A stretch of DNA of 64,000 nt from assembly GCF_048403405.1 (NCBI RefSeq), contig NZ_CP183129.1; one strand, given 5' to 3'. A program made the translations under genes and the position numbers. A model generated the notes under the pieces. The model was not told the origin of the DNA. It worked only from the letters and a program-made list of their open reading frames with translations, and did not search any database. This document shows, piece after piece, positions 3,057 through 5,833 of this stretch. Within the stretch, counting starts at the first letter, position 1, and the number at the start of each line of letters is the position of its first letter. Origin of the DNA: Escherichia coli. Its GTDB lineage: Bacteria > Pseudomonadota > Gammaproteobacteria > Enterobacterales > Enterobacteriaceae.

Positions 3057-3065
3057 TTGAATCTG

Positions 3066-4157
3066 ATGCGTTTTCTGCGCCGACCAATATCGCTGCGCCA
3101 ACGGCTGATATTGACCATTGGGGCCATTTTGTTGGTGTTTGAGCTGATCAGCGTCTTCTGGCTATGGCATGAAAGTACCGAGCAGATTCAGCTGTTTGAG
3201 CAGGCGCTACGCGACAATCGCAACAACGATCGCCACATCATGCGTGAGATCCGCGAGGCGGTCGCCAGCCTGATCGTCCCCGGCGTCTTTATGGTCAGCC
3301 TGACGCTATTTATCTGCTATCAGGCGGTACGCCGCATCACCCGCCCGCTGGCGGAGCTGCAAAAAGAGCTGGAAGCGCGCACCGCCGACAACTTAACGCC
3401 CATTGCCATTCACAGCGCCACCCTCGAAATCGAAGCGGTGGTTTCGGCGTTAAACGATCTGGTCAGTCGCCTGACCAACACGCTGGATAACGAAAGGTTG
3501 TTTACCGCTGACGTCGCGCACGAACTGCGAACGCCACTGGCGGGGGTGCGTTTGCATCTGGAACTGCTGGCGAAAACGCATCACATTGATGTAGCACCGT
3601 TAGTGGCACGGCTTGATCAGACGATGGAGAGCGTCTCCCAGCTGCTGCAACTGGCGCGTGCCGGACAGTCATTTTCTTCCGGTAATTATCAACATGTAAA
3701 ACTGCTGGAAGATGTCATTCTCCCCTCGTATGACGAACTCAGTACCATGCTCGACCAGCGACAGCAAACCCTGCTATTGCCAGAGAGCGCCGCCGACATC
3801 ACCGTTCAGGGTGATGCAACCCTGCTGCGGATGTTATTGCGAAACCTGGTAGAAAACGCCCATCGTTACAGCCCGCAAGGCAGCAACATTATGATTAAGC
3901 TGCAAGAAGATGGCGGAGCGGTCATGGCCGTTGAAGATGAAGGACCGGGTATTGATGAGAGTAAATGCGGGGAGTTGAGTAAAGCGTTTGTACGTATGGA
4001 CAGCCGTTATGGCGGGATTGGTCTGGGGTTAAGTATTGTCAGCCGCATTACACAGTTGCATCACGGGCAGTTTTTCCTGCAAAACCGGCAAGAGACTTCC
4101 GGCACGCGGGCCTGGGTACGGCTGAAGAAAGATCAGTACGTGGTAAACCAGATATAA
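3066..4157 (+). CDS. basS: two-component sensor histidine kinase
   Basis: ORF-track TTG start 3057 trimmed to ATG 3066 (MRFLRRPISL...), 363 aa; HAMP, H-box (ELRTPLA) and ATPase motifs. Confidence 0.88.
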   Translation: MRFLRRPISLRQRLILTIGAILLVFELISVFWLWHESTEQIQLFEQALRDNRNNDRHIMREIREAVASLIVPGVFMVSLTLFICYQAVRRITRPLAELQKELEARTADNLTPIAIHSATLEIEAVVSALNDLVSRLTNTLDNERLFTADVAHELRTPLAGVRLHLELLAKTHHIDVAPLVARLDQTMESVSQLLQLARAGQSFSSGNYQHVKLLEDVILPSYDELSTMLDQRQQTLLLPESAADITVQGDATLLRMLLRNLVENAHRYSPQGSNIMIKLQEDGGAVMAVEDEGPGIDESKCGELSKAFVRMDSRYGGIGLGLSIVSRITQLHHGQFFLQNRQETSGTRAWVRLKKDQYVVNQI

Positions 4158-4222
4158 AGAAAGCTGCTGACCACCAGCACGCTGAACACGGTAGTTAAAC
4201 TTTCATAAACACGGTTTTTCAT
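4133..4222 (-). CDS. pmrR: small membrane peptide PmrR, 29 aa (MKNRVYESLTTVFSVLVVSSFLYIWFTTY)
   Basis: Hand-translated minus-strand ORF: ATG at 4222-4220, stop TGA at 4135-4133; GGAGG Shine-Dalgarno 5-9 nt upstream; overlaps last 25 nt of basS on the opposite strand; below the 60-aa ORF-track cutoff. Confidence 0.7.
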   Translation of the reverse strand: MKNRVYESLTTVFSVLVVSSFLYIWFTTY

Positions 4223-4226
4223 TGCA

Positions 4227-4252
4227 CTCTCCTCCGTTAACCTGGAGGAGAG
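4227..4252. other. 9-bp stem inverted repeat ctctcctcc-N8-ggaggagag immediately upstream of pmrR
   Basis: Read directly; on the minus-strand RNA one arm is the pmrR Shine-Dalgarno GGAGGAGAG; no T-run on either side. Confidence 0.35.
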
Positions 4253-4292
4253 TATGCGCGTCAGAGATTAAGTGAACCTTAAGACTTCAATT

Positions 4293-4318
4293 GGCCTGAT
4301 AAGACAGCGTCTCAGGCC
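4293..4318 (-). terminator. REP-like hairpin downstream of proP (probable proP terminator)
   Basis: ggcctgataagacagcgtctcaggcc palindrome 13 bp beyond the proP stop codon. Confidence 0.45.
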
Positions 4319-4330
4319 ATCCGTTTCAGC

Positions 4331-5833
4331 TTATTCATCAATTCGCGGATGTTGCTGCACCAGGCGGGTACGTTTCGCCTGCAAATCGGCAATCTCGTGG
4401 TCAATATCATCGATTTTCTGCTCGATATTATCGTAATGCTCGACGAGAATTTCCTTCGCTTCCTGTATATCTGACGCCGCCGGTGTCGCACCTTTCAACG
4501 GACGATTTGCCGTCTCTTTCATGGTTACGCCGGTGATTAAACCAACCACCGCCACTACCATCAGGTAATAGGCAGGCATCATCAGATTCTGCGAGCTTTC
4601 GACCAGCCAGGCCGCCAGTGTTGGCGTCAGACCGGCAACCAGCACCGAAATATTAAATGCCGCCGCCAGCGCGCTGTATCGGATATGCGTCGGGAACATC
4701 GCTGGCAAGGTAGAAGCCATAACGCCCGTAAAGCAGTTAAGGATCACCGCCAGCATCAGTAACCCGGCAAAAATCAGGCCGATGACGTTACTGTTAATCA
4801 GAATAAACGCCGGGATCGCCAACACAAACAGTGCAACACTACCAAGTAGCACAAACGGACGACGGCCAAAACGGTCACTCAGCAAGCCCATCACCGGCTG
4901 GACAAACAGCATACCGATCATAATGGCGATAATAATCAGCACCCCGTGGTCTTCGGAGTAATGCAGGTTATGCGACAAATAACTCGGCATATAGGTCAGC
5001 AACATGTAGTAAGTCACGTTGGTGGCAATTACCAGACCAATACACGTCAACAGGCTGCGCCAGTGTTTGGTGGCAATCTCTTTAAACGAGACTTTCGGGC
5101 CATCCTGCAAACCTTCGCGGTCGCCCTGTTCCAGTTTATCAACATGCTGCTGGAACGCCGGAGTCTCTTCCAGCGCATGGCGCAGGTAAAGCCCGATAAT
5201 CCCTAACGGCAGAGCAATAAAGAACGGAATACGCCAGCCCCAGTCGAGGAAGTTCGCTTCGCCGACAATGGTCGAAATTAACACCACCACGCCCGCACCC
5301 AGCACAAACCCGGCAATAGAACCGAAGTCCAGCCAGCTGCCCATAAATCCACGTTTACGGTCAGGGGAGTATTCCGCAACAAATATCGACGCCCCGGTAT
5401 ATTCACCGCCGACCGAGAAACCTTGTGCCATCTTACAGATCAACAGCAGAATCGGTGCCCAAATACCAATCGTATCGTAGGACGGTATTAAGCCAATACA
5501 GAACGTACTGATCGACATAATCACAATAGTGATAGCGAGGATCTTCTGGCGACCATATTTATCGCCCAACATACCAAAGAAGAGTCCACCAAGCGGTCGA
5601 ATCAGAAAGGGAACGGAGAAAGTGGCAAGTGCAGCAACCATCTGCACGCTGGGGTCAGCCCCCGGGAAAAAAACTTTACCTAATGCGTAAGCAACAAAAC
5701 CATAAACACCAAAATCAAACCATTCCATTGCATTACCCAGTGATGCTGCGGTAATGGCTTTACGCAGTTTACCGTCATCAATAATGGTGACATCACGAAG
5801 GGTAATTGGTTTTACTTTTTTCCTTTTCAGCAT
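4331..5833 (-). CDS. proP: proline/glycine betaine:H+ symporter (MFS osmosensory transporter)
   Basis: ORF 4331-5866 trimmed to ATG 5833 (MLKRKKVKPITLRDV...), 500 aa; MFS fold with C-terminal coiled-coil extension. Confidence 0.9.
   Translation of the reverse strand: MLKRKKVKPITLRDVTIIDDGKLRKAITAASLGNAMEWFDFGVYGFVAYALGKVFFPGADPSVQMVAALATFSVPFLIRPLGGLFFGMLGDKYGRQKILAITIVIMSISTFCIGLIPSYDTIGIWAPILLLICKMAQGFSVGGEYTGASIFVAEYSPDRKRGFMGSWLDFGSIAGFVLGAGVVVLISTIVGEANFLDWGWRIPFFIALPLGIIGLYLRHALEETPAFQQHVDKLEQGDREGLQDGPKVSFKEIATKHWRSLLTCIGLVIATNVTYYMLLTYMPSYLSHNLHYSEDHGVLIIIAIMIGMLFVQPVMGLLSDRFGRRPFVLLGSVALFVLAIPAFILINSNVIGLIFAGLLMLAVILNCFTGVMASTLPAMFPTHIRYSALAAAFNISVLVAGLTPTLAAWLVESSQNLMMPAYYLMVVAVVGLITGVTMKETANRPLKGATPAASDIQEAKEILVEHYDNIEQKIDDIDHEIADLQAKRTRLVQQHPRIDE

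Follow-up and report, generated by a model that had tools for sequence, protein, structure and literature searches.

In the insertion sequence IS10, the ribosome-binding site (RBS) pairs with a segment located before the point where the element's own transcription begins; only read-through transcripts from outside form the inhibitory hairpin, and the element's own mRNA remains open to translation. IS50 is similar. This fold-back inhibition of externally initiated transcripts in IS10/Tn10 is said to have been described by Davis, Simons and Kleckner in 1985 (Cell 43:379). The present analysis concerns pmrR, a small-protein gene of Escherichia coli, and the RNA hairpin that covers its RBS, in a 64,000-nt stretch of DNA (RefSeq assembly GCF_048403405.1, contig NZ_CP183129.1; hereafter the window). 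The hairpin probably silences and caps RNA that reads through from the upstream gene, because the pmrR promoter appears to start transcription inside the hairpin loop.

PmrR is a 29-residue membrane peptide that inhibits LpxT (Kato et al. 2012 Mol Cell, as reported in PMC8004244 and PMC8129183). It determines how lipid A modification is divided between LpxT and EptA, and hence the balance of polymyxin and bile-salt resistance. The E. coli gene, its PmrA box, and its overlap with pmrB were drawn by Tian et al. 2021 (PMC8129183); deletion of the PmrA box abolishes PmrR function, with a pmrA-constitutive strain becoming polymyxin-sensitive and lpxT deletion reversing the effect (PMC8129183). Xu et al. 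2021 (PMC8004244) remarked on the 90-bp open reading frame (ORF) and its 25-bp overlap with pmrB. A preprint reports a 5-fold rise in low Mg of the Ribo-RET signal at the pmrR start codon, membrane association of PmrR by membrane fractionation, and growth defects both from pmrR deletion and from ectopic PmrR expression without stress (PMC11429745). All of this, from the gene and its PmrA box to function and translation, is thus published; the gene is annotated in RefSeq, and pmrR itself is not new.

In the window, pmrR occupies 4133..4222 on the minus strand, with an ATG start, 29 codons plus stop, and the predicted peptide MKNRVYESLTTVFSVLVVSSFLYIWFTTY. A sequence-only reading of this DNA had proposed such a gene, antisense to the 3' end of basS and overlapping it by 25 nt, with a PmrA-regulated membrane peptide as its product. 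All of this holds. The ORF is in the translated ORF list; a strain with 100% identity carries it in RefSeq as "LpxT activity modulator PmrR" (WP_000797658.1); and the peptide matches the NCBIfam equivalog NF033224 at 73.9 bits (cutoff 30) with residues 1-29 of 29 aligned. The strain TUM14771 is 100% identical across 3900-4500, a region matched in 5,412 of 5,426 complete E. coli genomes. This is the same gene as PmrR of Salmonella enterica and E. coli (a 29-residue membrane peptide and LpxT inhibitor, with an upstream PmrA box and convergent with pmrB), and the Ribo-RET signal at its start codon answers the question of translation that the sequence-only reading had left to ribosome profiling. 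The one difference from published PmrR is at codon 27 (4139-4141, minus strand), which is Thr27 here (WP_000797658.1) and Ala27 (WP_000797657.1) in other strains examined and in most E. coli. The relation between the hairpin and pmrR is not discussed in the PmrR literature consulted.

The sensor kinase gene basS (pmrB) lies at 3057..4157 on the plus strand (stop included), so that the two genes overlap tail to tail over the 25 nt 4133..4157. For comparison across species, a BasS search with one genome per species gave 80 loci, 65 of which, like the window, have a pmrR-like ORF of 28-33 codons convergent with pmrB. The convergent adjacency is kept in all 66 loci, and the size of the overlap varies from an 8-nt gap to a 57-nt overlap, with a 7-nt gap in Salmonella. 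Overlap of pmrB and pmrR was considered as a general regulatory feature and rejected, given this spread (-8 to +57 nt) and the lack of any overlap in Salmonella. The peptides diverge strongly among the loci; that of Klebsiella, for example, is MQKINFREYLAVATALVIIVAFFHQWVLTF. At the same position, downstream of a PmrA box, divergent PmrR-like peptides of 28-33 residues are encoded in Klebsiella, Raoultella, Kosakonia, Kluyvera, Phytobacter, and others (for K. pneumoniae, at 3550-3657 of its locus); the NCBIfam PmrR model fails to recognise the Klebsiella and Kluyvera peptides, the two that were tested.

The pmrR RBS lies in a perfect inverted repeat with 10-nt arms (4226-4235 and 4244-4253, 100% complementary) and an 8-nt loop. 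Reading in the direction of pmrR on the minus strand, the 5' arm ACTCTCCTCC (4244..4253) is complementary to the Shine-Dalgarno (SD) arm, the loop AGGTTAAC spans 4236..4243, and the 3' arm GGAGGAGAGT (4235..4226) contains the SD sequence GGAGG (4235..4231) and stops 3 nt ahead of the pmrR ATG. The sequence-only reading had rightly placed GGAGG in one arm of a hairpin and had given the stem 9 bp; the stem has one pair more, with the arm reaching 4253. Six of its 10 pairs are G-C. RNA from 4262..4200 (minus strand) folds at -22.3 kcal/mol, compared to -10.9 +/- 2.7 for shuffled sequences (z = -4.2; none of 200 shuffles was as stable). Nine distinct perfect inverted repeats of at least 10 bp (loop 3-12) are found in the window; dinucleotide shuffles, in which nested registers were tallied separately, give 0.75 hits on average (about a 10-fold excess).

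Conservation of the hairpin in relatives, on which the sequence-only reading had made its proposal depend, was found, and with covariation. We aligned 62 distinct promoter-leader sequences from Enterobacteriaceae with MAFFT, blind to structure. Helix cells are paired in 80.3% of cases, compared to 74.2 +/- 0.8% after shuffling (0/500 shuffles reach the observed value) and 38-54% in registers slid along the alignment; the covariation score is 0.225, compared to 0.130 shuffled (again 0/500) and at most 0.148 in slid registers. The pair at columns 35-56 of the helix illustrates this, with C-G in 26 sequences, A-U in 17, G-C in 6, and G-U in 6. RNAalifold recovered the core helix independently. 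The core GG of the SD arm is invariant in the 62 sequences, and in all species the SD lies within the 3' arm, which ends 0-5 nt ahead of the ATG.

Which strand folds can be asked from the mismatches that the helix tolerates. Minimum free energy (MFE) does not discriminate between the strands (33 vs 33 loci), and the MFE comparison was replaced by one in which G.U and A.C were penalised alike when helices were defined. In 45 distinct helices there are 416 Watson-Crick pairs, 30 pairs that are G.U on the pmrR-sense strand, and 12 that are A.C, mostly at the outer end of the helix within the -10 hexamer. As far as sequence comparison can indicate, this excess of G.U over A.C favours folding of the pmrR-sense RNA.

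Transcription of pmrR depends on PmrA. The minus strand carries a perfect PmrA box, CTTAAGGTTCACTTAAT, at 4283..4267, 44 nt ahead of the ATG, which bears out the suggestion of the sequence-only reading that such a box be sought there. It is one of only two perfect boxes (YTTAAK-N5-YTTAAK) in the window, the second being at the eptA promoter, and in 66/66 loci a box ends 41-46 nt ahead of the start codon. The -10 hexamer CATACT of the PmrA-dependent pmrR promoter (4256..4251, minus strand; alignment columns 29-34) follows the box after a 10-nt spacer. The hexamer has the form nAnACT, and 62/62 sequences keep the A at position 2 and the T at position 6, also when the bases opposite them in the helix change. 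These are the two key bases of the sigma-70 -10 element. The promoters of eptA in the same loci have the same layout (box, 10 nt, nAnnnT) in 52/58 cases. Their leaders serve as a control for the promoter type: the median best stem is 5 bp and -6.2 kcal/mol in eptA leaders, compared to 10 bp and -17.5 kcal/mol in pmrR leaders, and the hairpin is therefore specific to pmrR.

The geometry of this promoter places the hairpin in an unusual position. The 5' arm starts inside the -10 hexamer and would cover promoter positions of about -10 to -1. With the start taken as 7-8 nt beyond the hexamer, the PmrA-dependent mRNA should begin at about A4243 (+/-2 nt), the first base of the loop, with a 21-nt leader; we infer the exact start site from this spacing. 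The predicted +1 is A in 51/62 sequences, and the predicted leader is 19-22 nt long in 61/62. The 5' arm runs from the -10 hexamer up to the predicted start, and the PmrA-dependent mRNA should therefore lack it. On the mapped pbgP promoter of K. pneumoniae the edge of the PmrA footprint is at -19/-22 (PMC2565834), and a class II PmrA promoter is the best explanation of the pmrR arrangement. A sigma-70 consensus scan calls no promoter at pmrR; activator-dependent promoters that lack a -35 element should escape such a scan, and the result was not counted against this assignment.

The gene upstream of pmrR is transcribed in the same direction in 65/66 loci. It is proP in Escherichia (4331..5833, minus strand, in the window) and Citrobacter, and uvrB in Klebsiella, Raoultella, Kosakonia, Kluyvera, Phytobacter, and others. 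Little separates this gene from the promoter: only 7/64 loci have a terminator-like site between the upstream gene and the PmrA box, the gap from gene to box is 0-10 nt in several loci, and the Salmonella proP stop is 8 nt from the box. The sole locus with a divergent upstream gene, in Pantoea sp. A4 (positions 3490-3654 of that locus), has almost no SD hairpin (a 4-5 bp stem), a single case that fits the read-through model. Just past the proP stop in the window there is a repetitive extragenic palindromic (REP)-like 8-bp hairpin without a U-tract (4292..4319, minus strand), at which no curated RNA 3' end is found. Three nucleotides of this element (TGT) are missing here compared to two aligned E. 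coli strains, and most E. coli matches are 604 nt long, compared to 601 here.

Transcripts from proP do read into the hairpin, and their 3' ends map to it. The end lies at the pmrR start codon (4220..4222, minus strand; MG1655 4332116-4332118). In Term-seq at an optical density of 2.0 in LB, a pmrR-strand 3' end was mapped at MG1655 4332116, the A of the start codon and 4 nt past the stem, and no other curated 3' end occurs between the proP stop and this position (PMC7815308). RNAtag-seq places TRS summits at 4332117/4332118 with a termination index of 0.5-0.7 (PMC10687069), and SEnd-seq places termination of the upstream gene inside the pmrR coding sequence. Some RNA continues. About 350 nt beyond the 3' end at the stem, antisense to basS, is a region of Rho-dependent termination (approximately 3860..3880, minus strand; MG1655 4332468), where DirectRNA-seq with and without bicyclomycin (BCM) shows downstream reads rising from 32 to 443 (Rho score 8.58, p = 2.7e-37; PMC7815308). 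Without BCM, 248 reads fall in the 800 nt that precede MG1655 4332468, a stretch that includes the hairpin and pmrR (PMC7815308). The RNA antisense to basS may largely originate from proP. A second published pmrR-sense 3' terminus lies about 100 nt past the pmrR stop, at about 4033 (MG1655 4332305), also antisense to basS (PMC10687069). There is also a terminator-like site inside the pmrR ORF (4155-4179, minus strand), UGCUGGUGGUCAGCA followed by GCUUUCUUUA, which is a helix in the Rfam consensus as well; it could form only on untranslated RNA, and its conservation is inseparable from that of the coding sequence.

Taken together, we consider it reasonably probable that the hairpin is an insulator and 3'-end structure for upstream RNA and not a regulator of the PmrA-driven mRNA. 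Polymerase leaving proP would transcribe the PmrA box, both arms, and pmrR, and RNA with both arms would arise only from the upstream co-directional gene (proP here, uvrB in other genera). In this read-through RNA the hairpin would bury the pmrR RBS, leaving pmrR untranslated. The untranslated RNA would be a substrate for Rho, which would terminate it within antisense basS some 350 nt on, and exonucleases would then trim it back to the stem to give a stable proP mRNA 3' end; we infer this trimming in preference to termination at the stem. When PmrA is active, transcription would begin in the loop and GGAGG would be exposed. The computed cost of opening the RBS is consistent with this difference, at 19.7 kcal/mol in the read-through RNA compared to 5.2 from the predicted transcription start site (TSS) in the window, with medians of 17.2 and 6.4 kcal/mol and a higher cost for read-through in 62/62 sequences. 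Masking of the SD would apply only to RNA reading in from proP. Insulation of pmrR also has a rationale, because ectopic PmrR expression without stress impairs growth.

Several points weigh against this proposal. The start in the loop rests on promoter geometry, and the Cappable-seq supplement has no entry at the pmrR start coordinates. Transcriptional reporters of pmrR and of proP-pmrR were unresponsive to low Mg (PMC11429745). Silencing of proP read-through RNA rests on computed opening energies, and the difference between these energies is built into the comparison, since one arm has been taken away. On the basS-sense strand the perfect stem is equally stable (-20.2 vs -19.9 kcal/mol), and the asymmetry of G.U over A.C is partly confounded by constraint on the SD guanines. 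Hairpin strength is the same with or without an upstream terminator-like site (Mann-Whitney p = 0.43), and a correlation with gap length (rho 0.40) is confounded by phylogeny and carries little weight.

Other functions for the hairpin have to be considered. It could serve the eptA-basRS (pmrCAB) mRNA on the other strand, stabilising its 3' end or terminating it, since a perfect stem folds as well on the plus strand. Such a role would agree with pmrB constructs ending at +86, +103, and +126, which gave colistin minimum inhibitory concentrations of 0.5, 4, and 16 (Xu et al. 2021, PMC8004244), and with pmrB mRNA about 315-fold lower at +86 than at +126 (PMC8004244). With a margin of about 3 nt, these end points correspond to 4243, where the loop ends and the hairpin is halved; to 4260, just past the complete hairpin and the -10 hexamer; and to 4283, the distal edge of the PmrA box. 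The +103 and +126 constructs thus bring back the -10 hexamer and PmrA box of pmrR as well, which confounds the series, and in the same study half-lives were equal at +86 and +126 and a construct with the ORF only had the highest mRNA and no resistance (PMC8004244). The non-Watson-Crick pairs also point the other way, 30:12 in favour of G.U on the pmrR-sense strand; on the plus strand the stem has no U-tract behind it; and there is no curated basS-strand 3' end nearby, although basS expression was low in those conditions. We regard a role on the basS strand as unlikely. The truncations fall at the hairpin, at the -10 hexamer, and at the PmrA box, so the reported requirement for a "pmrB 3'-downstream region" (Xu et al. 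2021) can be read differently.

Factor-independent termination of proP at the stem, with the overlap of the SD incidental, seems similarly doubtful. The 3' ends lie 2-6 nt past the stem in two independent data sets, and they have no curated competitor between the proP stop and the stem. The GC-rich stem-loop of an intrinsic terminator is present, but the U-tract is absent: the tail CAATGAAA has 1 U in 8 nt, a terminator scan makes no call, and only 1/62 species has a U-rich tail (at least 5 U) after the stem. A termination index of 0.5-0.7 and the climb in reads past MG1655 4332468 from 32 to 443 on Rho inhibition both indicate read-through, and a plain terminator has no need of a 3' arm that is always the SD. 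The sequence-only reading had proposed this hairpin as the terminator of the proP transcript; the 3'-end maps do tie it to the end of proP RNA, and the canonical form of termination is what fails, since there is no U-tract, the effect is partial, and Rho acts downstream.

The same reading had also proposed translational control by the hairpin, which for pmrR's own mRNA is improbable, more so than either of the roles above, as the 5' arm is predicted to be absent from the PmrA-dependent transcript. On that account the hairpin would lie in the 5' untranslated region of the PmrA-dependent mRNA and gate translation, melting with temperature, a factor, or a small RNA (sRNA). Placement of the SD in the 3' arm in all species with the arm end 0-5 nt before the ATG, covariation favouring the pmrR-sense strand, and 27-fold enrichment of the region's RNA with Hfq in Salmonella would all suit it. 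However, the gap from box to ATG is only 41-46 nt and the 5' arm begins inside the invariant -10 hexamer; an mRNA with the complete arm would have to start no more than about 13 nt from the PmrA box, a spacing that a sigma-70 promoter activated from there does not allow, and the eptA promoters share the same box/-10 geometry. A functionless chance palindrome has next to no probability and is rejected, for although GGAGG/CCTCC runs are low in complexity, the fold is far more stable than shuffles (z = -4.2), compensatory changes are conserved in two genomic contexts, inverted repeats exceed the shuffled expectation, the hairpin is absent from the eptA control leaders, and an RNA 3' end maps to the stem.

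Insulation from read-through may matter for the control of lipid A modification. PmrR loss and ectopic expression both harm growth, and proP is induced by osmotic stress and in stationary phase. If the insulating role is correct, it would explain how strict PmrA control is maintained over a potent 29-residue regulator whose gene lies 8-110 nt downstream of a strongly expressed transporter gene. It would also explain the Term-seq 3' end listed as "internal" to pmrR, as that of the proP mRNA. What is gained is a specific mechanism for the hairpin; the gene itself is textbook.

Beyond pmrR, the other PmrA-dependent promoter of the window has a related arrangement. At 669-705 on the plus strand there is a 13-bp perfect palindrome, AAGCCAACCTTAAG-AA-CTTAAGGTTGGCTT, followed by AATTTTG, which receives a terminator call. 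The published primary 3' terminus of adiC, MG1655 4335633 with a termination index of 1 (PMC10687069), corresponds to it, at position 705 of the window. The 3' arm of the palindrome is the eptA PmrA box (685-701). Both PmrA-dependent promoters are therefore nested in a 3'-end hairpin of the upstream co-directional gene. A broader model would be a promoter inside a hairpin, in which the segment from -10 to +1 doubles as the anti-SD arm and the origin of a transcript decides whether it is translated: proP or uvrB read-through RNA would be silent, Rho-terminated, and capped by the stem, and PmrA-initiated RNA would be open. The similar nesting at eptA suggests a general way of plugging a horizontally mobile pmr module behind unrelated genes. 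We hold this wider formulation evenly balanced between right and wrong. A chromosomal-type pmrB-pmrR-proP segment (positions 1-1547 of its locus) is found on the 453-kb IncHI2A record of Salmonella sp. plasmid pPJT1-452kb, which is labelled as a conjugative plasmid; several multi-megabase "plasmid" records in the collection that contains it are evidently chromosomes.

Comparison with catalogued elements places the hairpin in a known family under a different name. Rfam RF02052, "enterobacterial sRNA STnc630", matches the window over its full length (4291..4126, minus strand; model 1-166 of 166) at 183.1 bits against a gathering threshold of 55, and the main stem of its curated consensus is the pmrR hairpin. 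The family is labelled as an sRNA, yet it covers the PmrA box, the promoter, the leader, and the whole translated pmrR ORF. STnc630 began as an Hfq co-immunoprecipitation candidate that comprised the whole proP/basS intergenic region of Salmonella, with 27 reads vs 1 in the control and a Northern result of "nd" (Sittka 2008). RF02052 is a small-protein gene and not a demonstrated sRNA or a discrete non-coding RNA, and the "sRNA" label appears wrong. The pair pmrR-basS is also listed as a convergent excludon in E. coli (ExcludonFinder, PMC12288877). The likeness is that pmrR-strand RNA extends at least 100 nt into antisense basS; the listing is silent on the hairpin and on the origin of the antisense RNA.

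Stem-loops that protect the 3' ends of Rho-terminated transcripts have been described (Dar and Sorek 2018, as reported in PMC7815308). Like these, the hairpin has a 3' end at the base of a stable stem without a U-tract and a BCM-sensitive region downstream; unlike them, its stem also holds the SD of the next gene and part of that gene's promoter.

The principle of fold-back insulation is thus known, and for pmrR it has, as far as seen, no earlier description in the literature consulted. A segment 5' of the RBS pairs with it, with covariation, and from promoter geometry this segment is predicted to lie upstream of the gene's own TSS, as it does in IS10. External transcripts likewise enter the region, as indicated by the 3' ends at the stem, SEnd-seq, the Rho site, and the co-directional upstream gene in 65/66 loci. 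Unlike the transposase gene of IS10, pmrR is a chromosomal gene for a small protein, and its translational block would be set by an anti-SD arm that is itself the -10 to +1 segment of an activator-dependent promoter, in a stem that is also the mapped 3' end of the upstream mRNA.

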